57,082 bases of DNA. It comes from an uncultured Candidatus Saccharibacteria bacterium (GTDB lineage Bacteria > Patescibacteriota > Minisyncoccia > UBA6257 > GWB1-50-10). The DNA is taken from assembly GCA_964366055.1 (NCBI GenBank), contig CAYISE010000001.1, positions 1 through 57,082 on the forward strand, read 5' to 3'. This document shows, piece after piece, positions 7,162-31,981 of the stretch. The position numbers and the translations under genes are program-made. How positions within the stretch are numbered: position 1 is the stretch's first letter; every line of letters starts with the position of its first letter. The notes below the pieces were generated by a model. The model worked only from the letters and a program-made list of their open reading frames with translations. It did not search any database and was not told the origin of the DNA.

Positions 7162-7333
7162 GAGGAGAACTCTGGGCGAAAATTATGACAAGGAAAAAGA
7201 CGACGATGAGCGCGACCATGGGAATAAGCCACCACATCTTATTCTGCCAAAGAAAACCGAATAAACGCGCCACAATACCGAAACGTATTGAAATCGTTTT
7301 CCAAAGACCCGATATTCTATCGGCAAATCTCAT
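7133..7333 (-). CDS. DUF5989-like small membrane protein
   Basis: 66 aa ending ...WWLIPMVALIVVFFLVIIFAQSSPLGPFIYTIF. This resembles the conserved C-terminus of small proteins found with carbamoyltransferase genes. Confidence 0.55.
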   Translation of the reverse strand: MRFADRISGLWKTISIRFGIVARLFGFLWQNKMWWLIPMVALIVVFFLVIIFAQSSPLGPFIYTIF

Positions 7334-13316: not shown

Positions 13317-14319
13317 TGGGATGCCTCAAATACCAATCGTAAGTTCTTTTCAATCCCTCTTCAAGAGATACATTCGGTTTCCAGCCGGTCAAGCTTTGCA
13401 ATTTCGTGATGTCGGCGAGCCGTCGCTTTACGCTTCCCGGCGGGGACGATTTTATATCCAATTTTTTCGGCCGCCAGCCCGCGATTTTAAAAAGTTTTTC
13501 CACCAGTCCTTTCATATTGATTTCCTCAAGGTCGCCGATGTGCACGGTTTCAATCGGCTGGTTGTCGGTTTTCGGAGAATCCATAAGTGCCTGCATCGCC
13601 CGAATCGCGTCATCAATATAACAAAAGGTTCTCGTATCATCACTGCCGTAGATTGGAAAGGGGTCAACTTTATTCGCTATTCTCAAAGAGAACTCCGGTA
13701 TCACGTGGTCATAGCCGGCCCGCGGACCGTAAAAATTATGAGGACGAATTACCAAGGCCCGGAAATTTAACATCTTGGCATAATGAATGACGAATAACTC
13801 GCCTACCAGCTTGGTTGAAGCGTAAGACCAGCGCGGATTATAGGGGTCTTCTATCACAAGCGGAACCTTTTCGGGCGTCGGGATGGGCAAAATACCGAAA
13901 GCATTCAATCCCCCGGCGTAGGCCTCATTTGAAGAAGTGAAACAGAATTTGCCTTCGCGATTATGCTTGGCAAACCAATCAAGCATATGAACCAGAGTGA
14001 GAGTGTTGATTTTCAAAACCTCGTGGGGAATTTCGTAGAAAAGTTTGGTGCCGTTAACGGCCGCAAGGTGATAGACACGAGCATATCCGCTACCCAGTTT
14101 TTCATACGAAGCAAGGTTGGTGAGATCCAAAGTCAAGAACTTTATCCTCGGGTTTTTTATCAATTCTCCGAAATCCTCATCCATCTTTCCTCTTCGGAGA
14201 TTATCCACCAAGACAATTTCTGCTTCGGTACTCTGAAGCAAATGATTCGCCAAATGATAACCGATGAATCCCGCCCCGCCAGTTATGAGAATTTTCATGC
14301 TTCGCGCAACAGATTCCAA
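13303..14319 (-). CDS. NAD-dependent epimerase/dehydratase (extended SDR)
   Basis: 338 aa. GGAGFIGYHL and YASTK (YxxxK). Confidence 0.8.
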   Translation of the reverse strand: MESVARSMKILITGGAGFIGYHLANHLLQSTEAEIVLVDNLRRGKMDEDFGELIKNPRIKFLTLDLTNLASYEKLGSGYARVYHLAAVNGTKLFYEIPHEVLKINTLTLVHMLDWFAKHNREGKFCFTSSNEAYAGGLNAFGILPIPTPEKVPLVIEDPYNPRWSYASTKLVGELFVIHYAKMLNFRALVIRPHNFYGPRAGYDHVIPEFSLRIANKVDPFPIYGSDDTRTFCYIDDAIRAMQALMDSPKTDNQPIETVHIGDLEEINMKGLVEKLFKIAGWRPKKLDIKSSPPGSVKRRLADITKLQSLTGWKPNVSLEEGLKRTYDWYLRHPNEKI

Positions 14320-15503
14320 ACATCCACAAATTTCTTATCCGGATGATTCTTGGGATTGATCTCCAAATATTTCTTATGGGGCGTCGCCAGTATCAGAATA
14401 TCGGATTTCGCCAAAGCGACATCCAACGGAACGAATTCCGGGTTTTTGATGTGCTCATCGGTACAAAGAACCGTCTTGCACTCCATTTGGGCCATTTTCC
14501 GAAGCTTGTATGACAGGGACGCGCGCGGGTCATCCACTTCCGCCTTGAAAGCCATACCCAGAATTCCGACCGTCTTATCTTTAAGCGAATGTCCGTATTC
14601 CCGCTTCAGGTCGCCTATGACGTGATTGACTAATCCTTCATTCACCAGCATCGCCGCGTGGCCGATCCAAAAATTGTTATTGGTAAAAGCGGCCAGTTGC
14701 ATCGTGTCCTTAAAAAGGCACGGGCCGGCGGCAAAACCCGGCGACGGCAGGTCGCGGTTGCGCGGATAATCCTTATTCATCGCCCGATGGATATTGTGAT
14801 AATTAAGACCGTGGTCTTGGGCGATCATAAAAAACTGATTGGCCACGGCAAACCGGATGTAACGCCACGAATTTGTAAAAAGTTTTGCCAATTCCGCTTC
14901 AATCGGCTTGACGGGGATTATATCCGCCGGAGTGATTTTCCTGAAGAGCGCGGTCACTTCCTTTATGGTCTCATCGTCAAAACCCGAAATAATTTGGGGC
15001 CATAATTTCAACTCCTCTATCGCGTGCCCCTGCATAATCCGCTCCGGACAAAATGCTAATTTAACTTTTTTACCTTTCTTCAAGAAGTGATTCTGAAGTT
15101 TTTCGGTAGTCCCCGGAAAAACCGTGCTCCGAAGAATGACGAATTGCCCGTCTCTGAAATAATCAATGCTCCTGTCTATTAGCCGGGTGATACCGCCGAA
15201 ATCGGGACTAAGATACTCGTCTACCGGCGTCCCCACGATAACAACCACGAATTTGGATTGGCTGATGGCTTCCGGAGAATCGGTCGTGAACAAAAGATTT
15301 TTTTTCAGGGCGGATTGCAGCGCTTCATCGCCGTCTTTCTCCTTGAAGGGAAACCGGCCGGACTGAATTTTTTCCAGCGCGGCCTTGTTGATATCCAAGA
15401 GGATTGTCTTTACGCCGCAATCGGCAAAAACCACGCCCAAAGGCAGGCCAACGTGCCCGGCGCCGCCAATAATACAAAGCTCATATTTGGCATTGTTTTC
15501 CAT
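14295..15503 (-). CDS. nucleotide-sugar 6-dehydrogenase (UDP-glucose/GDP-mannose dehydrogenase family)
   Basis: IIGGAGHVGLPLG NAD loop and catalytic-Cys region GFAAGPCLFKD. The track start at 15548 is a TTG. I prefer the ATG at 15503 (MENNAKYEL...), which removes the overlap with the upstream NUDIX gene. Confidence 0.8.
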   Translation of the reverse strand: MENNAKYELCIIGGAGHVGLPLGVVFADCGVKTILLDINKAALEKIQSGRFPFKEKDGDEALQSALKKNLLFTTDSPEAISQSKFVVVIVGTPVDEYLSPDFGGITRLIDRSIDYFRDGQFVILRSTVFPGTTEKLQNHFLKKGKKVKLAFCPERIMQGHAIEELKLWPQIISGFDDETIKEVTALFRKITPADIIPVKPIEAELAKLFTNSWRYIRFAVANQFFMIAQDHGLNYHNIHRAMNKDYPRNRDLPSPGFAAGPCLFKDTMQLAAFTNNNFWIGHAAMLVNEGLVNHVIGDLKREYGHSLKDKTVGILGMAFKAEVDDPRASLSYKLRKMAQMECKTVLCTDEHIKNPEFVPLDVALAKSDILILATPHKKYLEINPKNHPDKKFVDVWNLLREA

Positions 15504-15516
15504 TGAGATTAATATA

Positions 15517-16104
15517 TTATTTTTTACTCTCTCTGTCAAATCCCGCAAATATTTCCGGGTAAAGCAGTGAGGCCTTCATCACGCACGCAACGGTATCCGC
15601 GACCCAAATCTTTCCTTCCTTAATCATTTTTAATGTTTCTTGCGGAGAGACGGCGACTATTTCAATATCCTCCGTTACTTCAAGGTTTTGCTTTGGATTG
15701 AACTCCGCGTTTCTGACGAGATAGCAATGGACGATGTGCATTATTTTTGTCGGGACGTTGGAAACTTCGCCAATTCTGATGAGGTCGCTCGCCTCCGCTT
15801 TGATGCCGACCTCCTCTTCCAGTTCCGCGAGAGCCGATTCTTCCGGGGTCTTGCCCTCTTGCTGAAACCCCGCGGGAAGTTCAAGGGTTATTTCTCCCAA
15901 GCCGTGTTTGTATTGTTTCGTAAAAACAATTTTATTGCCTTTCGTTATGGGTAAAACCATCACCGCGTGAATCATCCGGGAAATAAAGTAGTCGTCTATC
16001 ACCGTCCCGTTGGGCAGCTCCACGGTGTGCTGGAAAACGGGGAACCACTTACTCGGAGAAACATCCGCTTCTTTAAGTATCTTCCACTTTTTTATGTTTT
16101 TCAT
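15517..16104 (-). CDS. NUDIX hydrolase
   Basis: 195 aa. Nudix box GKTPEESALAELEEEVGI. Confidence 0.8.
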   Translation of the reverse strand: MKNIKKWKILKEADVSPSKWFPVFQHTVELPNGTVIDDYFISRMIHAVMVLPITKGNKIVFTKQYKHGLGEITLELPAGFQQEGKTPEESALAELEEEVGIKAEASDLIRIGEVSNVPTKIMHIVHCYLVRNAEFNPKQNLEVTEDIEIVAVSPQETLKMIKEGKIWVADTVACVMKASLLYPEIFAGFDRESKK

Positions 16105-16118
16105 AAATAACTAAGTAA

Positions 16119-17618
16119 TTAATCGCACTTATAAATCGCGTACCCATAACCCGGCATTGTATTACCGAGTTTTATGCCGAATACTTCAGGCAAATCGCGA
16201 GAAAATTTATCGGTTGAGAGCGCGCATCCGGGAATTTCGGGGGGGACGAGCATTCCGCTGTACCGTTGCTGGAAAAAAATGAAGGCGGTATTTTCTTTTG
16301 GCTTTTCCGGCCAAGTGTTATACGAATACATTCTGTCATAATCTTCCGAAAGCGACCAGAGACCACCCGTTACCCCGAACTTCAGATGGCTATCCGGATA
16401 TTCCCGGCTGATTTTCCTGAAGGCATCGCGGGCCCCGTAAAAATCGAGGGATTGCCCCAAAAAAACTGGGAATAAAAAAACCGTCCGCGCGATGCCGGTG
16501 GCGACAAGAGCGAGAGTTAGAAAAACAGCGCCTCTCGCGGCAATCCCCGACTCCGAAAAGTAGCGGATAAAACCGAGGAAAACGAGAGGAGAAAAAGATA
16601 AAAGGTAGAAAATGTGCCCGACCGAATAAATCATGCTTCCCAACATAAAAACAAGACCCGCCGCGCAAACCGCAAAAATGAAGAGTGAAGTTATCCGTTC
16701 GCGGTATTTTCTGTATAAAAAAATACCGGATATGAGAATAAGCAATGTAACAAAGCCGTAAAACGGAGTCACCGGCGATAAAAAATAGTAGTGCAGAAAA
16801 TTAGGCAATGTAAACAAATCGCTGAATTGCGAAGTGTAGCTCCGGCTCACCATTAAAGCGTTTTTGACGGTGCCAGCCAAAGTTTCCCGAATACCGAACG
16901 GGCCCAAAGAAATTACTGAGAAAAGCGTCAAAAATCCGACCAATATAACAGAACCGAATCTCAAAAAAAAATCCCTCGATTTGAATTTCACCGCCAGCAT
17001 CGCTCCCAAAATAAGGACCGAGATGATACTGGCCGCCAGATGCGTGGCGAGCATAAATCCCAAGAGAATTCCATACAAGAGCCAATCATATTTCTTGATA
17101 TAAAAAAACACGAGAAGGCCGAGCGTTACCCATAAACCGGCGAGTATTTCAGGTCGGCCACTACCGCCATTCAAGCCCGAAGCCAGCGCCAAAAGCCCGA
17201 GCATAATTACAAAAAGAGCCGGCCAACTTAACTCTTTTCCCCGCCTCGCCGCCCGGTAAAATAAAAACGCGCTCAACCAAATCACAACTATGTTTAAAAG
17301 AGCGATGGTCACGAAAATATCCACGGGCGACACTCCAGACAGCCCGCGGCTTAAAATCAGCGGAAACAGGGGCGGATAAAATAAAAATCTCTTCAAACCG
17401 GAGGGGTCTATCAAATTGAGCGCCTGCTCATCGGGAAACAAAGGGCTGGTTAAAACGCCCTTATTCGCGAATTGGATGGCCGGTACCAGAAAAAATGACG
17501 AGTCGCCGCCGGGAACGGGATAGGCGTTGCGCGCGAAAACAAAAAGCAGTACGGCTGTGGTCAGACAAAAAAAGATTAAAACCGCTTCTTTTAAACCCAG
17601 CTTGCTTAAAAAATTCAT
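16119..17618 (-). CDS. polytopic membrane protein, candidate GT-C-like glycosyltransferase or polymerase (paralog of 23747-25267)
   Basis: 499 aa with about 11-13 hydrophobic segments. It shares these blocks with the 506-aa protein: AYPV..GDS, DPSG.K.F.F.PPLFPL.LS, GRPE.LA, LATH, SE.Y.RMY.Y, and the C-terminal FGI.L.NT.PGY....Y.C. Confidence 0.5.
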   Translation of the reverse strand: MNFLSKLGLKEAVLIFFCLTTAVLLFVFARNAYPVPGGDSSFFLVPAIQFANKGVLTSPLFPDEQALNLIDPSGLKRFLFYPPLFPLILSRGLSGVSPVDIFVTIALLNIVVIWLSAFLFYRAARRGKELSWPALFVIMLGLLALASGLNGGSGRPEILAGLWVTLGLLVFFYIKKYDWLLYGILLGFMLATHLAASIISVLILGAMLAVKFKSRDFFLRFGSVILVGFLTLFSVISLGPFGIRETLAGTVKNALMVSRSYTSQFSDLFTLPNFLHYYFLSPVTPFYGFVTLLILISGIFLYRKYRERITSLFIFAVCAAGLVFMLGSMIYSVGHIFYLLSFSPLVFLGFIRYFSESGIAARGAVFLTLALVATGIARTVFLFPVFLGQSLDFYGARDAFRKISREYPDSHLKFGVTGGLWSLSEDYDRMYSYNTWPEKPKENTAFIFFQQRYSGMLVPPEIPGCALSTDKFSRDLPEVFGIKLGNTMPGYGYAIYKCD

Positions 17619-18725
17619 TTATTCGGCCTCAAAAATAAACTCATCCGTTAAAAAATAATCGCGGCTCGGTATAAAAGCGCGCTTCTTTGAAAACAACCTC
17701 ACGCCGCATTTCACCGCCCTCATAATAACATAGGGGAGAAACACGGCTACTATAATTAATTTTTCCATCGGCGCGTAATCCTTGAAAAAGATATCAATGA
17801 CGTTAGTAAAATATCTTTTCCAGACAAAGAAACTCAACTTTTTTCTAAATAAATCCGATAAAGCGGACGCGAGTATGCTTAGCCCGAATGAAAAATGCAC
17901 ACCTCTTTGATATTTTTTTAAATTCTCCGAACCGGCATAAATGGCTTCGTACGCCCGACGGATAGCGAGAGAATAGCGGACGGGACCTTCCAAATCCTCG
18001 GTGAACCCGCCCTGCAATCCAACGTGATTCGCTCCATGGATTGTATTAACATACCCCGCTTCGCGTATGATAACGAAATATTCATAATGCATTAACACCC
18101 CCGGAAAGATCATGCCATCTATCGGCTCCGGTATGCCGCCTCGTTTGATTAAACTCGTAGGCCTTGCCAACTCCCTTCTCAAAGAATTGACATAATCCTC
18201 CTTTCGCATAAGAGAATGGAATCCCCCGGCGGCGATGCTGGGATGATTGTAGCAATGACGGAAAAACCAATCGGCTGAATATCGGCCGGGTTTTATCCGG
18301 GTTTCATACGTAAAAATCATTTTGCCGGCGTCCGCGATCCTAAATGTAACGTCTCTCGTGAAGATGGCGGCGGTATCGGGATTGGCAAGAAAATATTTCA
18401 CGGATTCCTCAATATAATTCCGGGAAAGCCAATCATCGCTGCCTAAGGCCTCTATAAGATAGCCGGCGCCGGACTCGGCGCATTTTAAATAATTATTGCC
18501 GCTGCCGATATTCGTTTCATTCCGAAAGTATTTGACCCGCGAATCGCGCTTGGCATACCGCGAGACCACTTCGCGCGTATTATCCGTGCTGGCATTATCA
18601 ACCACGATAATCTCAATATTGCGATAGGTTTGGTTCATGCCGCTTAGTATGGCGCGCTGAACCATGTCAACGCGGTTAAAAGTGGGTATGCAAATACTGA
18701 CTAAGGGATTTCTATCCATTGTCAA
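17619..18725 (-). CDS. family 2 glycosyltransferase with C-terminal membrane segments
   Basis: 368 aa. VSICIPTFNR...VVDNASTDNT, GSDD (DxD-like), hydrophobic C-terminal third. Confidence 0.8.
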   Translation of the reverse strand: MTMDRNPLVSICIPTFNRVDMVQRAILSGMNQTYRNIEIIVVDNASTDNTREVVSRYAKRDSRVKYFRNETNIGSGNNYLKCAESGAGYLIEALGSDDWLSRNYIEESVKYFLANPDTAAIFTRDVTFRIADAGKMIFTYETRIKPGRYSADWFFRHCYNHPSIAAGGFHSLMRKEDYVNSLRRELARPTSLIKRGGIPEPIDGMIFPGVLMHYEYFVIIREAGYVNTIHGANHVGLQGGFTEDLEGPVRYSLAIRRAYEAIYAGSENLKKYQRGVHFSFGLSILASALSDLFRKKLSFFVWKRYFTNVIDIFFKDYAPMEKLIIVAVFLPYVIMRAVKCGVRLFSKKRAFIPSRDYFLTDEFIFEAE

Positions 18726-19466
18726 TTATCTTATCCTCTTCAAAAACCCATCGGGGGCGACTGTTATAAGCAATTTATTTCCCATCTCTTCATCAACCGC
18801 AAAATTCTTATGCTCCCTAAGAAACTTTTTGACGGCTGTTAGTGGGCTATTACCCTTGTCCCAGGGCCGATTTTTATTGCTGCCTTTCGGCATATATTCT
18901 ACGAGGGTATCAAAAGCCACTATATAACTTCCTTTGGAAACCAATGGGGAGTAAAGTTCGAGCTCGCGCAAAACATGTGTACCAGAATGATTTGAATCCA
19001 AAAATATCAAGATTTTTTTCTTGCCTTTGGCGATTTTTTTTACCCGGCTGATGATTTCCGGTGCAACCGAAGAACCCTCAATCATCTTTATCCTTTCGAA
19101 CATCCGGTGCTTCTCTATTTCGCGCCGATTGTGTTTTCTAATATCTATATCAATTCCCAATACTTCTCCTTTACCGCCTATCAATTCCAAAATCGAAGCG
19201 GATAGGATTATGGAACCGCCATGGGCAATCCCAGTTTCAATCACCAGATCTGGCTTAACACTCCAAATTAGCTCCTGCATCGCCATGATATCCTGCGGAT
19301 ATTGAATTATCGGCCGGCCCAGCCAAGTGAAATTGTACATATATCGGCTGAGCGCGGCTTTAATCGAAAAATCCATAGCACTCGCCTTTAGTTTCTTGTT
19401 CTTTCCCTGCCGAACGATATTTTGTCTGACTTCCTCTTTAAATTGTTCTATAGGATTATTTTTCAT
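18726..19466 (-). CDS. CmcI/cephalosporin-hydroxylase-family methyltransferase (sugar O-methyltransferase-like)
   Basis: 246 aa. WLGRPIIQYPQDIMAMQELIW..KPDLVIETGIAHGGS is the characteristic CmcI-family signature. Confidence 0.75.
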   Translation of the reverse strand: MKNNPIEQFKEEVRQNIVRQGKNKKLKASAMDFSIKAALSRYMYNFTWLGRPIIQYPQDIMAMQELIWSVKPDLVIETGIAHGGSIILSASILELIGGKGEVLGIDIDIRKHNRREIEKHRMFERIKMIEGSSVAPEIISRVKKIAKGKKKILIFLDSNHSGTHVLRELELYSPLVSKGSYIVAFDTLVEYMPKGSNKNRPWDKGNSPLTAVKKFLREHKNFAVDEEMGNKLLITVAPDGFLKRIR

Positions 19467-20416
19467 GACTTTAACCGATTGATGATTTCTTCTTCTTTTA
19501 TCTCAAAAACATCCGATGTCGGGTGAAGCCAGTCATCGCCCAATCGGCGCTTTATGACTACCTTTTTATCCAGCGGCATGCCGGCCAATTCGGCCAAAAG
19601 TGCGTCGGCGGCCACATGAGCGCTCTTACTGTCATCCATGACGACAATCTTCTTGGTTTTTTTAACACTTTCAATTATGGGCAACCAATCGGTCGCAAGC
19701 GCTGAATTAACGTTGAAATGCGCCGTATTTACCTTTCGCTCATTAAGCGTGGAATTTAGCTTATGAGCTTGAGGGAATGAAAAATTGAAAGAAACGAGCG
19801 TGGCACTATCCCCTTCCGAATATTGAAAGATCGCTCCGTCTCCGAATACCTTGATAGGTTTGCCCGGGTCAATAATCTCGGTCTTCCCGAGCCGCTGGCT
19901 TACTCCGATGATCCTGAAACCCGGCTGAACCAGATATTTATTGAAAATATATTCCGCATCTTCTTTATTCGTAACCGCAAACCCCGGAATTCTCGCGACC
20001 GAACAAAAATCGGCGAAATTATTCAGGGCGGACTGGGGACCCTCATAACCGCTATCCACGACTGTCGCCACTATCGTGAAAGAACCTTCCTTCGGCTGAT
20101 GCCCCATATTTCGGATTATATTGTAGGTATTCACCAACTGGTCTATGCCCAGAAGAAGAAAATCCATTTGTTTCATGAAGAAAACGCCGGAGGCGCCGTT
20201 CAACATCAGACCGAAACCGAAACCGACCAAACTATTCTCGGCATTCGTGGAATTAATGATCCGTCCACCCGACTGAACAGCAAGACCCTTCGTAAGTCCG
20301 CCAATGCAAGAGCCGGCGTTAATATTCTGCCCGAAGAGCACGGCATGCTTGGGTTTTAAAACCTCTTCTTTTATCAAGCTGTTGACGTGTTCAATATATT
20401 TCATTGCGAAGTTCAC
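19463..20416 (-). CDS. ThDP-dependent 2-oxoacid dehydrogenase E1 component, beta-subunit-like (transketolase Pyr and C domains)
   Basis: 317 aa. NAENSLVGFGFGLMLNGASGVFFMKQMDFLLLGIDQLVN resembles the E1-beta pyrimidine-binding domain. Translationally coupled to the alpha subunit. Confidence 0.7.
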   Translation of the reverse strand: MNFAMKYIEHVNSLIKEEVLKPKHAVLFGQNINAGSCIGGLTKGLAVQSGGRIINSTNAENSLVGFGFGLMLNGASGVFFMKQMDFLLLGIDQLVNTYNIIRNMGHQPKEGSFTIVATVVDSGYEGPQSALNNFADFCSVARIPGFAVTNKEDAEYIFNKYLVQPGFRIIGVSQRLGKTEIIDPGKPIKVFGDGAIFQYSEGDSATLVSFNFSFPQAHKLNSTLNERKVNTAHFNVNSALATDWLPIIESVKKTKKIVVMDDSKSAHVAADALLAELAGMPLDKKVVIKRRLGDDWLHPTSDVFEIKEEEIINRLKS

Positions 20417-21299
20417 TCATTACCGTTTGGGACAATTTTCCAAATTCATCCGAACCGATCTCCTGTTTTATCACGAAGACCGGATCGTCTTCGTTCTCCC
20501 TGAGGATCACCTTCGCCATATCCACAGTCGGGGCCGGGCCAGCGTGATAATTGATGTATCTTCCGTCGTCGGCTCTCCTATCGCCGAGGGTTTTCACGGT
20601 TATTTCAACACAAGCCGGATCGTCGCTTCTTAACGCTTCTCCCTTTATCCCTTTCAGCATTTCTATGTATTTATGGCAATGATTTCCATCAAGCTTGAAA
20701 TAGGAAATATTGACCGAGCCGGCCATCTGTTTCAGATCTATATTACATCTCCTTTCCGAAATGCTCGTGCCCAAAGACCACTCGTTATTTTCTATCATGA
20801 AGACCAGTCTTAATCCCAATGTCTTCGCCAAAACAAGGCTTTCATAGAAGCTCCCTTCTTCCATTGAGCCATCACCGCCAAAAACGAAAACCACGCCTTT
20901 TTTTTCTTTCATCTTCTCGGCCATAGCAATGCCGGATGCGACGGGAAAATTATTTCCCAAAATGCTGGAGCTATAGATGACGTGGCGCGCCGGATCAATG
21001 AGATTCATTGAACCCAATCTCCCGCCGGCAAGACCGGTGGATCTCAAAAGATACTCGTCCAGAATCGGTCGCAATTTTCCGAGCTGGGCGAGATTATAGG
21101 CCATATTCCGGTGCGACAATATCAGCTTATCTTCGCCAGCAAGAATATGATTCATCGCCGCGGCAATCGCTTCATGGCCAAGAGCCAAATGAACCGGGAT
21201 CTTGAACTTCCCGGCCTTATACTCCTCGTTTATGAGGAGTTGGCTTATCCTAAGCCGTAGGATTTCCTCCGCTATTTTCGTGTCTTTTAGATCGGCCAT
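20391..21299 (-). CDS. ThDP-dependent 2-oxoacid dehydrogenase E1 component, alpha-subunit-like
   Basis: 302 aa. HLALGHEAIA..., SHRNMAYNL, and the ThDP motif GDGSMEEGSFYESLVLAKTLGLRLVFMIENN (GDG-X26-NN). Confidence 0.75.
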   Translation of the reverse strand: MADLKDTKIAEEILRLRISQLLINEEYKAGKFKIPVHLALGHEAIAAAMNHILAGEDKLILSHRNMAYNLAQLGKLRPILDEYLLRSTGLAGGRLGSMNLIDPARHVIYSSSILGNNFPVASGIAMAEKMKEKKGVVFVFGGDGSMEEGSFYESLVLAKTLGLRLVFMIENNEWSLGTSISERRCNIDLKQMAGSVNISYFKLDGNHCHKYIEMLKGIKGEALRSDDPACVEITVKTLGDRRADDGRYINYHAGPAPTVDMAKVILRENEDDPVFVIKQEIGSDEFGKLSQTVMSELRNEIY

Positions 21300-21362
21300 T
21301 TACCAACTCATCTTCTCATAAAAAACTAGTGTCCGCAACGCTAGCGTGCTAGTATTTTAAAA

Positions 21363-21839
21363 ATGGAAATACCTCAATTATCCAAGAAAGAAATAGATGA
21401 GTGTTTGCTACGAGCCGAAGATTCAGGAAGGCGCCGCTACGCAAAAATCTTGCATAAGCCCGGCGATGAATTGAATCGGGCCTTCAATTTTATGCTACCG
21501 GATTCGTATATGCGTCCCCACTATCATCCAAGCGAGGAGAAAATAGAAAACATAAAAATCGTAGATGGAAAAATAGCGGTGGTTTTTTTTGACGACAAGG
21601 GAAGCGTGAAGGAAACGTTTATCTTGGAGTTGGACGGAAAAATGGAGATTGATGTGCCCGCTTTCGTCTGGCACACCTACGTCATTCTCTCCGATTACGC
21701 CATCACCTACGAGACGATGATGGGCGTCTATGACCCAAAAACCTATAAAAATTTCGCGGAGCAATGGGCGCCCGCCGAAAACACACCCGAAAGCGTCAGA
21801 TATTTGGAACTTCTGAAGGAAAGGACGGCCGCTCTTTGA
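21363..21839 (+). CDS. WbuC-family cupin-fold protein
   Basis: 158 aa. RRRYAKILHKPGDELNRAFNFMLPDSYMRPHYHP...IVDGKIAVVFFDDKG matches my memory of WbuC-like cupins found in O-antigen loci. Confidence 0.65.
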   Translation: MEIPQLSKKEIDECLLRAEDSGRRRYAKILHKPGDELNRAFNFMLPDSYMRPHYHPSEEKIENIKIVDGKIAVVFFDDKGSVKETFILELDGKMEIDVPAFVWHTYVILSDYAITYETMMGVYDPKTYKNFAEQWAPAENTPESVRYLELLKERTAAL

Positions 21840-22902
21840 GCCAGCGCAAATCGTCGGAAAGATATTGGTTTTCGTGAAGATACTCAAGTTGTTGAAGACG
21901 ATAAAAACCTTTATTTTTGAACATCTCCCGATTCATTGAGATTCTTTGGAAAAGCGCCACCATCTCCTTCATGCCCCGTTCAACACTCCATTCGCATTTG
22001 AAACCGGGGAATACTTCTTTTATCTTCGCGAACGAAACCTTGTAGGTGCGCGTATCCACGCCCCCTTTTACTTTGCGGTCGCGAATAAGGCCTTCTTTGT
22101 CCAAATCCGGATTCTCGTTCAAGAATTTAACTTCGCATCCAGGCACCGCTCCCGCTGCGATCTTCGCAAGTTGGATCACTTGGAGATTATTGGCTTCGTC
22201 TCCCACATTCAATACCAACAACTCACCGCCATTATAATCCAGCTCAATGGCGCGCCGGATGGCTTCGCAAAAATCCAAAATGTGCACATTCGGCCGCCAC
22301 GGCGTTCCATCCGAATTCAAAACGATGGCCTTGTCCGTGAAGGCCATCCCCGCGAACATATTGACCACCACATCAAATCGCAGGCGGGGCGACGAACCGA
22401 AAGCCGTCGCGAAGCGCAGGGCAATCGGCGAGAAATCCTTATCGCTTATGGAACGCAAATCTTCTTCTACCTGAATCTTATTTAACGAATAGCCCGTTTG
22501 GGGATGAGTGGGCGATTCTTCGGTCAAAAAATCATCGCCGCCTATTCCGTAAACGGAACAGCTGGAGGCGAAGATGAATTTTATCCCCTTCTTTTTGCAA
22601 ATCTTCGCGATAGCCAAGCTGTAGGCCCGAGTCGGGTCATAGACGCGCGCCGCATCCAGTTTCCCGACGGGGTCGTTGGAGATTCCCGCCAGATGCACCA
22701 CGGCGTCAAAGCCGTTCAAATCCTTTTCTTCAATATCCCGGACATCTTTCAGAATCGTCTCCGTCTCAATCGGTTTATAGAGAAGGCAGTCGCGGAAAAA
22801 TCCGGTGTCGTAGCCAACGCATTTATTGCCCCGGCTCTCAAGATAAGGAGTCAGAACGCTTCCGATATAACCCAGAGAACCTGTCACCAAAACTTTTTTC
22901 AT
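21796..22902 (-). CDS. NAD-dependent epimerase/dehydratase (extended SDR)
   Basis: 368 aa. VTGSLGYIGS Rossmann loop and YSLNK (YxxxK). Confidence 0.75.
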   Translation of the reverse strand: MKKVLVTGSLGYIGSVLTPYLESRGNKCVGYDTGFFRDCLLYKPIETETILKDVRDIEEKDLNGFDAVVHLAGISNDPVGKLDAARVYDPTRAYSLAIAKICKKKGIKFIFASSCSVYGIGGDDFLTEESPTHPQTGYSLNKIQVEEDLRSISDKDFSPIALRFATAFGSSPRLRFDVVVNMFAGMAFTDKAIVLNSDGTPWRPNVHILDFCEAIRRAIELDYNGGELLVLNVGDEANNLQVIQLAKIAAGAVPGCEVKFLNENPDLDKEGLIRDRKVKGGVDTRTYKVSFAKIKEVFPGFKCEWSVERGMKEMVALFQRISMNREMFKNKGFYRLQQLEYLHENQYLSDDLRWLKERPSFPSEVPNI

Positions 22903-23750
22903 ATCTTTTTGAAATATTCTACCGTTTTTCTAACGCCTTCTTTTATGCTTGTCCGCGGCTTCCAGCCGATTTCCTTTTTTATTTTTGAAATATTGGCATA
23001 GAACCCCCGCGGACGCGCTCTTTTGAGGCACCACTTCGGCGCCGGCAAATTGAAACTCTTATAAACCTCTTTCGCCACCTCCGCCACGCTCGTGAGACGA
23101 CCCGAGCCAATATTGTAGATTACGCTCGGCTTTTTGCTTTTTTCAAGAATTTTTATAAGAGCGTCGGTAACATCATCAATATAAACGAAATCGTTGGCGC
23201 CGGATTTATTCTTCACTTCCGGCATGACTCCGTTTTTAAAACTCCGGACGAGATGCGCGATAAGAGTCCGGGGCTTCTGACCCGGACCGTAGGCAAAGAA
23301 CAATCTGACCCACAAGAATTGCATTTTGCTTTGAAGAGCGATTTGTTCCCCCATGGCCTGAATGGTTCTCTTCGCGATGACGAAATCCGGAACGTGAGCC
23401 GGCAATAAAAGAGGAGCCGATTCCTTCAGGGCGCCTTCTCCGTCGCCGTACTCCCAGCAACTCCCGACCGAAAGGAATTTTTTGCACCCGAGCTCGGCGG
23501 CCGCGGAAATGATGTTCAAACTGTTCGTCATATTTCTCAAACTCACAGCGGCCGTGAAATCGTATTGCTCAAGCCCCTCCCAAGCCAAGTGAATCACGGC
23601 ATCCGGCCGGAATTTTTTGAGCTCTTTCTTCCAGACATCAATGTCTTTTAAATCCCCCTTCAGAAAAAGCAGTTTGTGCTTGCGCGCGATAAGCTTCGGC
23701 GCCAAATGCGAACCGATGAAACCGCTTCCGCCGGTAATAAAAATTCTCAT
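22899..23750 (-). CDS. NAD(P)-dependent epimerase/reductase (SDR)
   Basis: 283 aa. ITGGSGFIGSHL, with a 4-nt overlap to the downstream SDR. Confidence 0.75.
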   Translation of the reverse strand: MRIFITGGSGFIGSHLAPKLIARKHKLLFLKGDLKDIDVWKKELKKFRPDAVIHLAWEGLEQYDFTAAVSLRNMTNSLNIISAAAELGCKKFLSVGSCWEYGDGEGALKESAPLLLPAHVPDFVIAKRTIQAMGEQIALQSKMQFLWVRLFFAYGPGQKPRTLIAHLVRSFKNGVMPEVKNKSGANDFVYIDDVTDALIKILEKSKKPSVIYNIGSGRLTSVAEVAKEVYKSFNLPAPKWCLKRARPRGFYANISKIKKEIGWKPRTSIKEGVRKTVEYFKKI

Positions 23751-25267
23751 TGTTCAGAGGAACAATCGTACACGCCGAAAGCGTAGCCGGGCGTGGTATT
23801 AGCGAGAGGAATGCCGAAAATAACGGGTTTCTTGCGGATGAAAAAGTCCTTCACAGCGCGGCAGTAAAACAGTTCAGCCGGTAATTCAGTCCAGCCGTTT
23901 ACTCCCTCCCTCATAATAATGGTGGTGGTCGGATATTTAACGTCTTCGTAATCGCCATAGAGATACATCCGGCCATAATTCTCGGAAATAGGCCAAATAG
24001 TTCCGTCAACGCCGATCCGTTGGTTCGGGTCTAAAGGCAACTGTTGAAAGGCGGCCCGAGCGCGCTCCAAAGACATACCCGATTTAATGAAGAACGGGAA
24101 CAACGCCAACCGATAGAAAAAAACCAGGGAACTCAAAACTATCGCCAGGAGGGCGACATATTTTAATACTTTTGAACGCGCCAGAAACGCGGGGTAATAA
24201 GCGATAATCAAAATCCACAGCGGCGTCAGCGCGAAGACATAAGAAAGGTTCTGCTTGTACACGAGCAATAGAAAGAGGAGACCGGCCGTGAGAAGGCCGA
24301 ATAAATAAAAAAGAAGGGGCGCCGCGATTCTATTTTTAAAACGCCGATAAAATAATAATGAACATGCGAGAGAGAATGTAATAATCAATCCCTGAAAAGC
24401 AGCGCTCCCGGAAACGGTGAGATTGGAGATAATTTTGATAAGAAAGTCCTTAGTGATTGAAAACGGCTGGATAATGACCGGCGGTTGGCCGCTCGCCAGA
24501 TACCCCGCCGGACTCAAACCGGAATTGAGACGAGAGAACTGATGGAATACGCCCTGCGCGGTCGGCAAGAAACCATAACCGAAAATCTGCGTAATCAGAA
24601 AGAAAACAACGAGCGAAACGGCGAGGGCGAGAAACGTCAGGCCGAGGGCTTTTTTCATCGGATGATAGAAGGCGAAAAAGACGCCGATGAGAGGCGCGAA
24701 AAGAATAGCCGGCCCGGGATGAGTGGCGAGGTTTAAGCCAAGAACCGCGCCCAAAAGAAGCCACAACCAATTTTTATGGGGATAGAGCAATCCAAAAAGC
24801 GCTAATGTCATTAATAATCTGGCAAGCGTTTCGGGCCGGCCGGGATAGAAAATGGTGATGGCGGCGAGAGAAAATAAAGAAAACGCGTAAATAACGATAC
24901 GGTGCCAGCCGGCTTGTTCCCAATCGGGAATCAGCAACTTCTTATAAGCGAAGGCGGCCAAAAGAATGGTGGCGGCATAAAGTGTGAAGAGCGCCAGATG
25001 CGCGCCCTGCGGAGTCCCGGCGGGCATGAGCCAACTAAGGACGAGGGGAAACAACGGCGGAAATACCAAAAATTTACCGGCGCCGGACGGGTCTCCGGCG
25101 AGAAACATCGGGGAGAGCTGATTTATAAGCCCGTGGCCCAACTTGTGATTTATCGCGGTGGCGGCATAATATATGGAATCACCGCTCATAACCGGATAAG
25201 CGCGCAGGGCAAAAATAAAGAGAATGACAATTATAAAAAGTGGGACGAGGTAGACCGCCATCCGCAT
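23747..25267 (-). CDS. polytopic membrane protein, candidate GT-C-like glycosyltransferase or polymerase (paralog of 16119-17618)
   Basis: 506 aa with many TM segments. It shares conserved blocks with the 499-aa protein (see that entry). It is divergently adjacent to a DPM1/Ppm1-like GT2. Confidence 0.5.
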   Translation of the reverse strand: MRMAVYLVPLFIIVILFIFALRAYPVMSGDSIYYAATAINHKLGHGLINQLSPMFLAGDPSGAGKFLVFPPLFPLVLSWLMPAGTPQGAHLALFTLYAATILLAAFAYKKLLIPDWEQAGWHRIVIYAFSLFSLAAITIFYPGRPETLARLLMTLALFGLLYPHKNWLWLLLGAVLGLNLATHPGPAILFAPLIGVFFAFYHPMKKALGLTFLALAVSLVVFFLITQIFGYGFLPTAQGVFHQFSRLNSGLSPAGYLASGQPPVIIQPFSITKDFLIKIISNLTVSGSAAFQGLIITFSLACSLLFYRRFKNRIAAPLLFYLFGLLTAGLLFLLLVYKQNLSYVFALTPLWILIIAYYPAFLARSKVLKYVALLAIVLSSLVFFYRLALFPFFIKSGMSLERARAAFQQLPLDPNQRIGVDGTIWPISENYGRMYLYGDYEDVKYPTTTIIMREGVNGWTELPAELFYCRAVKDFFIRKKPVIFGIPLANTTPGYAFGVYDCSSEQ

Positions 25268-25305
25268 GTGTTTATAGTAACACCCGGTTAAGAAAATTGA
25301 AATTT

Positions 25306-26043
25306 ATGATTAACGAAAAAAAAATTGTGATTGTGATACCCGCTTACAACGCGGCAAAAAAAATAACGACTGTGTTTGAACGCATCCCTAAAGAAATTTG
25401 GGATAAAAATTCTGCCGTCATTATCGTGAACGACGGCAGTACGGACGAAACAGGCGAAAAGATTAAAGAAATTCAAAAGCGCTGGAATACTCGAATTATC
25501 CCGATTATCAAACCGAAAAATGAGGGATATGCCCGCGCTCAAAAAACCGGTTTTGCCATGGCTCTGAACATGAATGCCGATATTGTTCCGCTCTTGCATT
25601 CGGACGGCCAGTACGCGCCAGAGATACTACCGGAGCTTCTTAAACCCCTTGAAAACGGCGATGTCGACATCGTCCAGGGATCGCGCATGATTGACAAACG
25701 CGCCGCGCTTCGCGGAGGAATGCCTTTCTACAAGTTCATCGCGAATATTTCTTTAAGCGCTCTTGAGAATCTGGTTTACGGCCTTCATTTCGCCGAATAT
25801 CACTCGGGCTACATGCTTTACTCCCGAAAAGCGCTTGAAACCGTTCCCTTTGAAAAACTCTCGGATACGTTTCACTTTGACGGCGAGATGCTTTTGGTGG
25901 GGGCAAAGAAAGGTTTGCGGGTAAAGGAAATTCCAATTTCCACGACATATGCCGATGAAGTGAGCCATCTTAAGCCGATTCAATATGGATTTCACGTTCT
26001 TGGTATCATGATAAAATACTTGCTTGGAAAATATAATTTTTAA
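25306..26043 (+). CDS. family 2 glycosyltransferase, polyprenyl-phosphate sugar synthase-like (DPM1/Ppm1/ArnC-like)
   Basis: MINEKKIVIVIPAYNAAKKI...VNDGSTDET...HSDGQY. The track start at 25240 is a GTG that overlaps the divergent gene. The ATG at 25306 fits the canonical GT2 N-terminus. Confidence 0.7.
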   Translation: MINEKKIVIVIPAYNAAKKITTVFERIPKEIWDKNSAVIIVNDGSTDETGEKIKEIQKRWNTRIIPIIKPKNEGYARAQKTGFAMALNMNADIVPLLHSDGQYAPEILPELLKPLENGDVDIVQGSRMIDKRAALRGGMPFYKFIANISLSALENLVYGLHFAEYHSGYMLYSRKALETVPFEKLSDTFHFDGEMLLVGAKKGLRVKEIPISTTYADEVSHLKPIQYGFHVLGIMIKYLLGKYNF

Positions 26044-26058: not shown

Positions 26059-27072
26059 ATGAGTTCAAGAGTATTCATAACAGGCGTGGCCGGTTTTCTT
26101 GGGAGCCATCTGGCAGACAGATTGCTTCGGGACGGGCATGAAATTATAGGCATTGATAATTTTCTCGGCGGACACGAAGACAATATTCCGAAGGGTGTCC
26201 AATTTCATAAAATAGACGCGCGAGACCTTGAAAAATTAAAACCCCTCATGAAAGGGGTGGAAGTGGTATATCACTGCGCCGCCGCGCCGCACGAAGGGCT
26301 GTCGGTATTTTCTCCGGATCTCGTGACTCAACATACCTATAATTCCTCAATTGCAACATTAACGGCTTCAATCGTAAACAACGTGAAGCGGTTTGTATTT
26401 TGTTCAAGCATGGCACGCTACGGCAAACAGGAACGGCTTCCTTTCACGGAAGATATGCCTCCCAGACCTCAAGACCCCTATGGAATCGCCAAGTACGCTT
26501 CGGAACTCACAATTGAGAGCTTATGCGACGCGCACGGCATGGAATACGCAATCGCGATCCCCCACAATATCATCGGTCCGAGACAAAAATATGACGACCC
26601 GTTCCGAAACGTCGCCTCCATCATGGCCAATTTGATGCTTCAGGGAAGACAACCGATTATTTATGGTAACGGCGAACAGAAACGAGGGTTCTCGTACGTG
26701 CAAGATGTAACCGAACCATTGGTAAAAATGGGGTTCGACAAAGTAGCCGTGGGCGAGGCAATTAATATCGGGCCGGATGAGGAATTCACCACGATTAATG
26801 AATTGGCGCGCCGACTGGCTTCCATTATCGGATTCAAAGAATTACAACCGATTTACCACAACCCCCGGCCGCTCGAGGTAAAATTTGCTACATGTTCCGC
26901 GGATAAAGCGCGAAAACTTTTGGGATACAAGACAACATATAGCTTGGATGATGCGCTCACAGAGACAGTTGAATGGATTCGCAGGCGCGGACCAAAGCCC
27001 TTTATATATCATCTTCCCCTGGAGATTATCAATAAGCATACCCCAAGCACCTGGAAAGACCGCCTTTTTTGA
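26059..27072 (+). CDS. NAD-dependent NDP-sugar dehydratase/epimerase (extended SDR)
   Basis: 337 aa. TGVAGFLGSHL and YGIAK (YxxxK). Confidence 0.8.
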   Translation: MSSRVFITGVAGFLGSHLADRLLRDGHEIIGIDNFLGGHEDNIPKGVQFHKIDARDLEKLKPLMKGVEVVYHCAAAPHEGLSVFSPDLVTQHTYNSSIATLTASIVNNVKRFVFCSSMARYGKQERLPFTEDMPPRPQDPYGIAKYASELTIESLCDAHGMEYAIAIPHNIIGPRQKYDDPFRNVASIMANLMLQGRQPIIYGNGEQKRGFSYVQDVTEPLVKMGFDKVAVGEAINIGPDEEFTTINELARRLASIIGFKELQPIYHNPRPLEVKFATCSADKARKLLGYKTTYSLDDALTETVEWIRRRGPKPFIYHLPLEIINKHTPSTWKDRLF

Positions 27073-27082: not shown

Positions 27083-27808
27083 CTACGATTCTCTGATAAT
27101 CATCTTTCTGGCGAAAGCGGACAAATGCGCCGGATGAGTGATGGTGTCCGGCGCTTTATCTGTTTTCCAAGCCACCAGTTGATTTCTTGCCGCCAGGTCG
27201 GGAAGGGTTGCTTTGTTTAAATTGAAATTATCCTTCTCCGGCATAAAATTAACAATATCCCGACTCATAATAAAAACGCCCACCTCCGTCCAATTGAATT
27301 TGGGGTCATTGGCCTCGGGGCCGTATACATAACTCAAAACATTATTTTTATCATCCACCCAGACATTGCGTTTGCTCTCTCCGCCGCCGCAAACCGCCAT
27401 CAGCCCTGATTTGCCGGAAGAAAAGTAAAATTCGCTCATCTTCGGCAAATTCAAAGCGGGCCAATAAACATCGCCGTACATCAGAAGGAATTCCGGAGCC
27501 AGAAGATTTTTCGCGTTCCTCACGCGGGCGCCGGTTTCATCTTCAATTTTGCCGACGTGATGTTTAATCCTTAAACCGAAACGGCGGCCGTCGCCAAAGT
27601 GTTCAATGAACTTTTCCGGAAGATAGCCCAGGAGCAGAACAATTTCTTCTATGCCATTTTTCTTCAAGGGGTCAAAAACATATTCAAGAAACGGGCGGCC
27701 ATTCACCAATACCATCAGTTTCGGCCGGTCATCAGTAAAGGGCCGAAGGCGCATTCCCCGACCGCCCGCTAAAATCACGGCTTGCTTAATTTTTTTGTTG
27801 CCATTCAT
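27083..27808 (-). CDS. sugar-1-phosphate nucleotidyltransferase
   Basis: 241 aa. AVILAGGRGMRLRPFTDDRPK matches the LAGG.G.RL.P.T..PK pyrophosphorylase signature. Confidence 0.8.
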   Translation of the reverse strand: MNGNKKIKQAVILAGGRGMRLRPFTDDRPKLMVLVNGRPFLEYVFDPLKKNGIEEIVLLLGYLPEKFIEHFGDGRRFGLRIKHHVGKIEDETGARVRNAKNLLAPEFLLMYGDVYWPALNLPKMSEFYFSSGKSGLMAVCGGGESKRNVWVDDKNNVLSYVYGPEANDPKFNWTEVGVFIMSRDIVNFMPEKDNFNLNKATLPDLAARNQLVAWKTDKAPDTITHPAHLSAFARKMIIRES

Positions 27809-30808: not shown

Positions 30809-31981
30809 CTATTTGCCGTAAGTTAATTTGGAAACCATGGCATCGCAAGCGGCCTTGACCTCGCTAACCGAAATCATTCCCATACTCTTTTTGATGCATT
30901 CGGATTGGCGATAATTACAATCAAGAAACCGATGATACACCGGAATGTGGCTGTCGCCGTAAGGAAACCAATCGCCGAAAATATCAAGAATGGAATACAG
31001 ACCGACGGTCGGCTTCCCGACGGCGGCGGCAAGATGAAGCAAACCGCTGTCAATCCCTAAAACAAAACCGCAATGTTTTAAGAGAGCGGCGGTCTCAAGA
31101 ACAGTCAATTGACCGGCCGTAATCAGCGCGTTCTCCGGCGAAAGTTCCCGGCTGATGATTTCCGCGTCCGGCCGGTCATCCTCGCTTCCGGCAACGATAA
31201 TTTTAGCGGCGTATTTTACCTCCAGATATCGCACCACCTCCCCGAAACGTTCCGGGAACCAGCGTTTTTCCGGAAAATTCTTCTTGGTCCCCGAATGAAT
31301 CGCCACGAGCAATTCATTCTCAAAATCGGGCCATTTCCGGCTTAAAAGGGCCTCAATTTTTGATTCGGCCTCGGCCGAAATAGGCAAATCAAACTCCGTT
31401 TTATCGGCCTTAACGCCGTTCTCTCTTAAAAGGCGGAGCAACGACTCGGTTTCTTTCTCTCCGTCAACATAATCAATCTGCGTTTTCCGGAAAAGATTGA
31501 TGATAACCCTGATTCGGAAGCCGAAGGCCGATTCCACTCCGAGCAATTTGGCAAAAATTATATTGCGGACGAAAGTTCTGAAATTAGTCCATTCGTGCGG
31601 CGGAATCTGGATAAAGAGGTCAAAACGCTCTCGCCGCAAATCACTTATAAATTTTTTCAATTTTTGAAACGAGTTGATTTCATCCGACCCGTAAATAATC
31701 ATCCGATTAAAATACCAGGCGCCTTGGAGAAGTTCTTTCGCGCCGGGAACGCCCCGCTCGCCCGGCGAAGTCAAAAGAGTTATCTCGGCCTCCGGATAAT
31801 TTTTTCTGATGGCGATGAATGAGGGAATAGCGCACAAAATATCGCCGATGTTGCCGACTTTAAACACCACGATTTTCCGAGGCGATTCTATTTTTCTTGA
31901 AAATAAAATTCTCTCAAAAAGCCGCAAGACAGCGTTAAGGAAATATTTTACAATCTTAATAAAATTCAATTTCATGCGCAA
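30809..31981 (-). CDS. family 9 glycosyltransferase (heptosyltransferase-like)
   Basis: 390 aa. KVGNIGDILCAIPSFIAIRKNYPEAEITLL and C-terminal IDSGLLHLAAAVGKPTVGLY are typical GT9 blocks. Confidence 0.7.
   Translation of the reverse strand: MRMKLNFIKIVKYFLNAVLRLFERILFSRKIESPRKIVVFKVGNIGDILCAIPSFIAIRKNYPEAEITLLTSPGERGVPGAKELLQGAWYFNRMIIYGSDEINSFQKLKKFISDLRRERFDLFIQIPPHEWTNFRTFVRNIIFAKLLGVESAFGFRIRVIINLFRKTQIDYVDGEKETESLLRLLRENGVKADKTEFDLPISAEAESKIEALLSRKWPDFENELLVAIHSGTKKNFPEKRWFPERFGEVVRYLEVKYAAKIIVAGSEDDRPDAEIISRELSPENALITAGQLTVLETAALLKHCGFVLGIDSGLLHLAAAVGKPTVGLYSILDIFGDWFPYGDSHIPVYHRFLDCNYRQSECIKKSMGMISVSEVKAACDAMVSKLTYGK

Follow-up and report, generated by a model that had tools for sequence, protein, structure and literature searches.

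Two paralogous membrane proteins of a saccharibacterial glycan cluster as candidate GT-C-fold glycosyltransferases of an unnamed family

What do two related membrane proteins of no recognized family contribute to the glycan-biosynthesis cluster of an uncultured Candidatus Saccharibacteria bacterium? The proteins, here named MpA and MpB, are encoded on contig CAYISE010000001.1 (assembly GCA_964366055.1), of which positions 1 to 57,082 were analyzed; this whole stretch of 57,082 nucleotides is referred to below as the window. The surface glycans that GT-C enzymes build or decorate determine phage and host recognition, resistance to antibiotics, and antigenic type, and to our knowledge the envelopes of the candidate phyla radiation (CPR)/Patescibacteria have received almost no biochemical study. 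The results presented here make it probable that MpA and MpB are extracytoplasmic glycosyltransferases with the GT-C fold, that they belong to an unnamed sequence family, and that they use a lipid-linked sugar.

Relatedness, predicted fold, and topology of MpA and MpB

The two proteins are encoded as follows:
16119-17618, minus strand: MpA, a polytopic membrane protein of 499 aa, from a GT-C-fold family without annotation
23747-25267, minus strand: MpB, a paralog of MpA of 506 aa with the same architecture

BLASTP aligned MpA and MpB over their full length at 28% identity (E=3e-44), bearing out the description of the two as clear paralogs in the initial annotation, which had been made from the sequence alone. 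The shared motif blocks that it had listed could also be read in this alignment: R.AYPV..GDS, GRPE.LA, LG..L.LATH, W..SE.Y.RMY.Y, and FGI.L.NT.PGY....Y.C were all visible, and the block DPSG...PPLFPL.LS matched approximately, with a Lys offset between MpA and MpB. D30 of MpB corresponds to D39 of MpA, R144-P-E146 of MpB corresponds to R155-P-E157 of MpA, and the other motif residues correspond likewise. Neither protein had a Pfam-A match at E<=1, and hence neither matched the STT3, Wzy_C, O-antigen polymerase, or Polysacc_synt models; there were likewise no NCBIfam matches at E<=0.01.

When 1.84 billion cluster representatives were searched exhaustively with a profile, the family comprised 724 clusters at E<1e-3, 299 of which were also found at E<1e-30. 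Nearly all of the 724 clusters had lengths of 470-540 aa (about 500) and matched over the whole profile, and such full-profile matches of near-uniform length indicate that the membrane core and the C-terminal domain form one conserved unit. A word-indexed search returned 35 proteins related to MpA and 10 related to MpB, all lacking a Pfam domain, and a further homolog search with a diverse alignment added nothing to the 35. Metagenome-assembled genomes of Patescibacteria, including Jorgensenbacteria and Saccharibacteria, were the source of the closest homologs of MpA and MpB, and the named sources of the family were Patescibacteria, Omnitrophica, Thermoanaerobaculia, Verrucomicrobiota, and the cyanobacterium Dolichospermum. 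Every family member named in any source was labeled “hypothetical,” which, with the Pfam and NCBIfam results, upholds the earlier statement that MpA and MpB could be placed in no named family. In tblastn searches, phage sequences contained no match to MpA and plasmid sequences no match to the family member P0031, and literature searches found no publication describing the family.

A Jorgensenbacteria contig (L010) carries two family paralogs, at 2732-4225 and 5118-6629, about 1 kb apart; together with the pair in the window, this case implies that within-locus duplication is recurrent. Near family members at three other loci there are polytopic proteins of 513-528 aa with no Pfam match (L017 13342-14883, L021 5531-7117, and L019 6232-7800), which are related (phmmer, 1e-5 to 1e-11) to a 522-aa hypothetical protein of a Chondrinema plasmid, itself adjoining DPPRS, DprE1, and DprE2. 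These proteins may constitute a second unannotated GT-C-like family.

AlphaFold2 models of MpA (pLDDT 89.1, pTM 0.90) and MpB (pLDDT 93.0, pTM 0.93) were built on family alignments and compared with the PDB by Foldseek. Both models contain 11 transmembrane (TM) helices, short helices in the long loop that follows TM1 (in MpA, residues 38-53, 64-70, and 84-91, between TM1 and TM2), a second long loop after TM7, and a C-terminal alpha/beta domain of ~110 residues (residues ~390-499 of MpA). The top 11 PDB matches of MpA were all GT-C enzymes, namely STT3A, EmbA/EmbB, AftD, Pmt4, and AftB (probability 0.8-1.0), as were the top 13 matches of MpB (probability 0.93-1.0), which began with AglB (E=1.4e-5) and continued with ALG9/ALG12 (TM-scores 0.56/0.58), DPY19, STT3A, AftD, ALG6, EmbC, and Pmt4. 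Lower-ranked GT-C-related chains, with probabilities of 0.47-0.84, comprised AftD and EmbB entries, the glycosylphosphatidylinositol (GPI)-transamidase subunit PIGU, and a GPI mannosyltransferase. Immediately below the top GT-C group, for both proteins, were G-protein-coupled receptors and transporters at probabilities of <=0.2, and the ligase WaaL (7tpg) matched MpB with a probability of 0.08 and a TM-score of 0.13. Only GT-C enzymes therefore headed the comparison that the initial annotation had proposed, with no confident match to a non-glycosyltransferase fold, and the models support a GT-C fold shared by MpA and MpB. A fold search of BFVD returned two unnamed viral membrane proteins and nothing informative.

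The orientation of the proteins was assessed from Lys plus Arg counts in 125 diverse relatives with 21-44% identity to MpA, with the loops defined from the model; residue conservation was scored over the same 125 sequences. The six short segments predicted to be cytoplasmic contained a mean of 12.6 Lys and Arg residues, versus 2.4 in the four short outer loops, about one of which was an invariant Arg. By the positive-inside rule, these counts place the N terminus inside and assign loops 1 and 7, the R-P-E turn, and the C-terminal domain to the outer side. Outer loop 1 of MpA carries D39 and D71, and R155-P-E157 lies in outer loop 2, the turn between TM3 and TM4. R155 was kept in all 125 sequences, an acidic residue at 157 in 124, D39 (the Asp of the “GDS” motif) in 120 (96%), Y491 and Y496 in 118 each, P34 in 116, Q451 in 109, D71 in 101 (with gaps in a further 12), and H193 in 74. 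The conserved acidic and basic residues thus stand in outer loops and not within the membrane. The two points on which the initial annotation had wished the GDS Asp to be checked, its conservation and the side of the membrane that it faces, both came out in favor of that reading, with the Asp placed outside and not facing the cytoplasm. D39 starts the first helix after TM1 (juxtamembrane helix 1, JM1). In GT-C_A enzymes the catalytic Asp is at JM1, just after TM1 (PMC12041525), and mutagenesis of GT136 likewise puts the proposed catalytic Asp just after TM1 (PMC11127046); by analogy, we infer that D39 occupies a matching position.

The C-terminal Cys, which had been listed among the shared features, was found to be clade specific and is no family signature: Cys498 was present in only 27 of the 125 relatives. 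Of the 28 sequences with Cys465, 27 also had Cys498, a pattern that suggests a disulfide between them in the extracytoplasmic C-terminal domain.

Glycosyltransferase neighbors and the surrounding cluster

Each paralog had been described as lying beside a family 2 glycosyltransferase (GT2) gene, and both neighbors matched PF00535:
25306-26043, plus strand: GT2b, a soluble GT2 of 245 aa (PF00535, 1.4e-25), divergent from MpB across 38 bp
17619-18725, minus strand: GT2a, a GT2 of 368 aa (PF00535, 1e-27), immediately upstream of MpA with a 0-nt gap

GT2b, which had been called short, divergent, and DPM1/Ppm1-like, conformed to that description. It has no predicted TM helix, and its best PDB sequence matches were to Pyrococcus DPMS (3.7e-15) and then ArnC (2e-8). 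Its best NCBIfam matches were to AglJ, PpgS, dolichyl-phosphate hexose transferase, and ArnC, and since all of these scored below the curated cutoffs, GT2b is no equivalog of any of the four. It also shared 28% identity over its full length with the GT2 domain of a GtrA-GT2 fusion protein of Dolichospermum. GT2b is accordingly a candidate polyprenyl-phosphate-sugar synthase of the DPM1/ArnC/PpgS class, as judged from these sequence matches, and would make a lipid-linked donor.

GT2a was directly upstream of MpA and membrane anchored, as had been stated, with a single C-terminal hydrophobic helix at residues ~320-342. Its best matches were to TuaG, PglI, EpsE, and chondroitin/heparosan synthase and covered only the N-terminal 120 aa, in the generic N-terminal half; by these matches it is a conventional Leloir-type GT2. 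Two further GT2 genes of the window, at 255-1040 and 2194-3114, were considered as donor synthases and were not clearly DPM1-like.

The neighborhoods of relatives were drawn from six CPR loci found by a narrower genome scan, three loci found by a metagenome scan, and the loci of individual relatives. In Dolichospermum, the family member is part of a four-gene cassette consisting of a short-chain dehydrogenase/reductase (SDR) gene, the GtrA-GT2 fusion gene, the membrane protein gene, and a second SDR gene, flanked by genes with unrelated Pfam domains (Rho_N/DUF4912 and FBP aldolase). The P0111 locus contains a GtrB-type GT2 (6e-58 to Synechocystis GtrB and 8e-38 to ArnC) together with NDP-aminosugar pathway genes (nucleotidyltransferase, DegT, and dehydratase), and at the P0042 locus a DPMS-like GT2-methyltransferase fusion gene overlaps the start of the membrane protein gene. 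P0031, which is 35% identical to MpA, is accompanied by a UbiA-type enzyme, an SDR, and an HAD protein, and the UbiA-type enzyme shares 49% identity with a protein annotated as decaprenyl-phosphate phosphoribosyltransferase. At the P0183 locus, which belongs to the MpB clade, a GT2b ortholog is three genes away. SDR genes flank the family member at the Dolichospermum, P0031, P0183, and P0111 loci.

In total, a donor synthase lies within about three genes of the family member in 5 of ~13 independent lineages (window MpB, Dolichospermum, P0111, P0042, and P0031); the linkage is not universal, and by our reckoning, which is an estimate and not a calculation, it appears to be far above the expectation for enzymes present once or twice per genome. 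In the CPR loci of the MpA clade (L001-L003 and L008-L012), a full-length GT2a ortholog is adjacent to, or one gene from, the MpA ortholog. In L001-L003 a dehydrogenase gene directly follows the membrane protein gene and is itself followed by an SDR gene; an SDR gene like that at 13303 in the window follows the membrane protein gene in L012 and lies downstream in L007, and ORFs of 402 aa follow it in L007 and L009. A GT2b-like gene is located 5-6 kb downstream in L010 and L011.

Within the window, MpA and MpB belong to a single large glycan-biosynthesis cluster that extends from position 1 to ~37,900, mostly on the minus strand. The cluster includes GT2, GT4, and GT9 glycosyltransferases; sugar-tailoring genes for many SDR epimerases/dehydratases, a DegT aminotransferase, a carbamoyltransferase, RmlC, and a thiamine pyrophosphate (TPP)-dependent E1 alpha/beta pair; FkbM-, CmcI-, and C-methyltransferase genes; and, for precursor supply, genes for a nucleotide-sugar dehydrogenase, a nucleotidyltransferase, and two NUDIX proteins. 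The genes that bear on the paralogs are as follows:
13303-14319, minus strand: SDR, a downstream partner of MpA
14295-15548, minus strand: nucleotide-sugar 6-dehydrogenase, downstream of MpA (TIGR03026, 269.6 bits; cutoff, 189.8)
15517-16104, minus strand: NUDIX hydrolase, a downstream partner of MpA
18726-19466, minus strand: CmcI-like O-methyltransferase (PF04989, 4.3e-91)
19463-20416 and 20391-21299, minus strand: TPP-dependent E1 beta/alpha pair (PF00676, 2.2e-31; PF02780, weak)
21796-22902, minus strand: second SDR epimerase of the same operon (PF01370, 2.4e-32)
22899-23750, minus strand: SDR epimerase/reductase (PF01370, 3.6e-36), whose start overlaps the MpB stop by 4 nt
26059-27072, plus strand: SDR epimerase/dehydratase directly downstream of GT2b (PF01370, 1.7e-48; NCBIfam matches below threshold only)
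27083-27808, minus strand: sugar-1-phosphate nucleotidylyltransferase for NDP-sugar supply (PF00483, 2.1e-14)
36488-37861, minus strand: Wzy_C/O-antigen-ligase-like membrane protein (PF04932, 1.1e-19; TIGR03097, weak)

Because of the 4-nt start/stop overlap, MpB and the SDR at 22899-23750 are likely to be translationally coupled. The SDR at 26059-27072 probably prepares the donor sugar, either as a nucleotide sugar or while it is lipid linked. The product of 27083-27808 had matches, below the NCBIfam thresholds, to mannose-1-phosphate guanylyltransferase and GlmU-like models, and the Wzy_C protein is a candidate for a separate polymerase or ligase of the cluster. The methyltransferase and E1 genes at 18726-21299 form a sugar-tailoring group between the two paralogs that is syntenic in L001. 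In L002, L003, and L013, which are otherwise syntenic, a split transketolase N/C pair stands in place of the E1 pair, a swap that suggests interchangeable two-carbon-branch sugar chemistry.

Several other features of the cluster were observed. The 817-aa GT4 gene product of 10863-13316 (minus strand) is a fusion of a GT4 of 401 aa with a soluble protein of 439 aa, the C-terminal half having no Pfam match, and the two parts are separate adjacent genes at L001 14677-17185 (phmmer, 2e-176). Two tiny membrane ORFs at 6895-7333 (minus strand), one matching DUF5989 (6.5e-14) and the other weakly SxtJ-like, adjoin the carbamoyltransferase gene at 5108-6889. A GT9 heptosyltransferase-like gene is present at 30809-31981 (minus strand) in what is probably a CPR genome, which would lack lipopolysaccharide, and the family member P0046 likewise has a GT9 gene (L014 6619-7692) directly upstream. 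An IS200/Y1-transposase-like ORF (37946-38638, minus strand) lies at the cluster edge and adjoins the Wzy_C gene.

Proposed function and its alternatives

The predicted fold, the conservation and orientation of the GDS Asp, and the recurrent synthase neighbors all favor the proposal of the initial annotation that the paralogs are candidate extracytoplasmic glycosyltransferases, and none of the outcomes that it had named as contrary (a non-glycosyltransferase fold, an Asp facing the cytoplasm, or a lack of co-occurring GT2 genes in other genomes) was observed. The mechanism is best supported for MpB. The neighboring nucleotidyltransferase and SDR enzymes would generate a modified NDP-sugar, the soluble DPM1/ArnC-like GT2b would place this sugar on polyprenyl phosphate at the cytoplasmic face of the membrane, a putative flippase would turn the lipid-linked monosaccharide over, and MpB would move the sugar onto an acceptor at the outer face, which may be a wall glycopolymer, a surface protein, or a lipid. 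By analogy, the candidate catalytic base is the almost invariant Asp that begins the first juxtamembrane helix (D39 in MpA and D30 in MpB), and the donor phosphate may be held by the Arg of the R-P-E turn, which is invariant, with the help of the neighboring acidic residue. The conserved outside C-terminal domain, with W421, E425, Y427, Q451, Y491, and Y496, may contribute to acceptor binding. MpA probably works like MpB. Its conserved dehydrogenase and SDR partners hint, speculatively, at a uronic-acid-derived sugar; uronic-acid-derived sugars are a feature of the Arn and Rgt pathways.

A number of observations weigh against this reading. The fold matches are remote, with TM-scores of 0.3-0.58 and E values of 1e-5 to 0.1, and searches of PDB sequences with family profiles of 36 and 125 sequences yielded only noise. 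Among the scanned ORFs of the window there was no GtrA, SMR, MATE, or Wzx/Polysacc_synt flippase. GT2a was rejected as a DPM1-like synthase on its best matches, chondroitin/heparosan synthase and TuaG, so the pairing of MpA with GT2a is one of adjacency and not a demonstrated pairing of an enzyme with its donor synthase. Furthermore, no polyprenyl-phosphate glycosyltransferase was found near P0033 (which is beside a Wzy_C gene), P0074 (an orphan), P0089, L007, or L023, and the P0032 and P0046 loci contained conventional GT2s only. The pairing logic put forward in the initial annotation, a lipid-linked-sugar synthase next to a polytopic glycosyltransferase, thus held for MpB and GT2b and failed for MpA and GT2a; synthase neighbors recurred across the five lineages and were missing from several loci.

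The alternative that fares best is that the family consists of oligosaccharyltransferase (OST)-like or ligase-like GT-C enzymes that take an already assembled glycan from a polyprenyl-diphosphate carrier and pass it en bloc to a protein, such as an S-layer protein or pilin, or to the wall. Oligosaccharyltransferases were indeed the best structural matches (AglB for MpB and STT3A for MpA), the last TM helix leads into a conserved outside domain, as it does in STT3, AglB, and PglB, and some relatives have no polyprenyl-phosphate glycosyltransferase nearby, one of them overlapping a Wzy_C gene. We nevertheless regard en bloc transfer as quite unlikely, since no STT3 Pfam match was obtained, the C-terminal domain, of only ~110 aa, has LW.LSEDY in place of WWDYG, monophosphate-donor synthases are adjacent in the five lineages, and fold matches of similar strength link the family to enzymes that use Dol-P-Man or Dol-P-Glc (ALG9/12, ALG6, DPY19, and Pmt4) or decaprenyl-P-Araf (Emb and AftD).

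The same Emb and AftD matches, along with AftB, raise a second alternative, in which MpA and MpB would be GT-C enzymes that act as processive polymerases, in the manner of Emb, AftD, or MptA, and build a chain at the outer face from polyprenyl-P-sugar donors. Two genomes have two paralogs per locus, and neither an ABC exporter nor Wzx was seen in the 38-kb portion of the cluster; within positions 1-38000 of the window, no ABC exporter or initiating phosphoglycosyltransferase was found, although the cluster is cut at position 1 and exporters may lie beyond it. The many cytoplasmic GT2, GT4, and GT9 enzymes and the Wzy_C protein, however, fit conventional repeat-unit assembly, the family is without the large carbohydrate-binding domains of Emb and AftD, and the compact Dolichospermum cassette resembles a decoration module, which leaves processive polymerization very doubtful. 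The suggestion in the initial annotation that the paralogs might be the missing polymerases of the cluster is weakened in turn by the Wzy_C protein at 36488-37861 and by the lack of WaaL fold similarity in MpB.

It is highly improbable that MpA and MpB are Wzy-type polymerases, WaaL-type ligases, transporters, or flippases, readings that their polytopic nature, their place in a polysaccharide locus, and their lack of a family annotation might invite and that were rejected on fold, given the low WaaL, transporter, and G-protein-coupled receptor scores, the absence of Wzy_C, O-antigen polymerase, and Polysacc_synt matches, the separate Wzy_C gene, and the conserved charged residues in outer loops.

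If MpA and MpB are instead taken as glycosyltransferases that act on a lipid-linked sugar, as we prefer, a family of several hundred “hypothetical” clusters gains a testable function, with D39 and R155 of MpA as proposed catalytic residues and GT2b as the proposed partner synthase of MpB. Many metagenomic polysaccharide loci could then be better annotated, to the benefit of CPR envelope biology, and the family would offer a small (~500 aa), confidently modeled GT-C for structural and glycoengineering work. A bolder extension, which we consider unlikely, is that glycosylation at the outer face in CPR/Patescibacteria and several other poorly studied phyla depends mainly on this family, either as a compact OST-like enzyme for S-layer or pilus proteins or as an enzyme linking unusual sugars, branched or methylated, to an undescribed CPR wall polymer. 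In either form, acceptors would be recognized in a distinct way, defined by the conserved C-terminal domain and the R-P-E motif, which would found a new CAZy GT family.

Comparison with known systems

The closest functional parallels are the three-component systems GtrA/GtrB/GtrX (Gtr), CsbB/GtcA/YfhO, ArnC/ArnE-F/ArnT, Ppm1/PimE, and PpgS/Rv3779, in which a GT2 of the DPM1/GtrB/ArnC class is combined with a polytopic GT-C-fold protein that has an acidic residue in outer loop 1. This likeness holds for the MpB-GT2b pair and for the Dolichospermum, P0111, and P0042 loci; it does not hold for MpA with GT2a, which is the wrong kind of GT2. The Arn pathway is also similar in having sugar-nucleotide tailoring genes adjacent. 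The systems differ in that MpA and MpB match no GT83, GT39, PMT_2, YfhO, or GtrX-type model and in that a flippase of the GtrA, SMR, or MATE type was not seen among the window ORFs, whereas in Dolichospermum the GtrA domain is fused to the GT2. GT2b has no TM helices, which sets it apart from GtrB and ArnC and brings it closer to PpgS or a DPM1 catalytic subunit. The Pfam models for GT83 ArnT, GT39 PMT, PMT_2, YfhO, DUF2723, and similar GT-C families matched neither the window proteins nor 66 diverse relatives, and the family hidden Markov model did not match the GT39-like and DUF2723 proteins of L019. In hhalign comparisons with single GT39-like, DUF2723, and 522-aa GT-C-like proteins, probabilities were <2% and not significant, and the best local alignments paired the GDS Asp with the first-loop Asp of these proteins, a correspondence that is no more than suggestive.

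GT136, represented by ORF12 of Citrobacter youngae (PMC11127046), shares its architecture with MpA and MpB: there are 11 TM helices, with a small helical domain following TM1 and a domain that contains beta structure following TM11. The UbiA-PPPRS/SDR/HAD module at the P0031 locus has the same part list as the pentofuranose three-component system described with it (PMC11127046). ORF12, however, has 652 aa and a carbohydrate-binding module of 150 aa (PMC11127046), compared with the tail of ~110 aa in MpA and MpB, and the GT136 system has a UbiA-type synthase where the window has a GT2-type one. Comparison of the 125-sequence profile by hhalign with the GT-C of the Rhizobium sp. CCGE531 system, a single sequence whose GT136 membership was inferred from the supplement of PMC11127046, gave a probability of 0.2%.

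GT87, the family of the GT-C_A mannosyltransferase PimE (PF09594), was the sole Pfam family matched by more than one family member, weakly and by 3 of the 66 diverse members (best, 9.1e-7), and it shares a polyprenyl-P-sugar donor and a catalytic Asp at JM1 (PMC12041525). MpA and MpB themselves had no PF09594 match at E<=1, PimE was outside their top 50 fold matches, and PimE, judged by its description in PMC12041525, has no counterpart of the conserved C-terminal domain. AglB/STT3 (GT66), the archaeal and eukaryotic oligosaccharyltransferase catalytic subunits that were the top Foldseek matches, resemble MpA and MpB in that an outside C-terminal domain comes after the TM core. They differ in having 13 TM helices and 700-860 aa, as opposed to 11 TM helices and ~500 aa, in sharing no sequence similarity, and in the WWDYG motif, for which the corresponding stretch is GLWSLSEDY in MpA and TIWPISENY in MpB; in addition, the neighbors of the MpA/MpB family make monophosphate-linked donors.

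At the level of sequence, the family therefore belongs to none of the named families against which it was tested (Pfam, NCBIfam, the GT-C of the GT136 system, and the GT39-like and DUF2723 proteins of L019). What is new is an unannotated sequence family; the enzyme superfamily and the pathway logic are known, and there is no conceptual surprise. By analogy with these systems, we infer that the family works like the GT-C component of a Gtr-, Arn-, Ppm1-PimE-, or GT136-type system.

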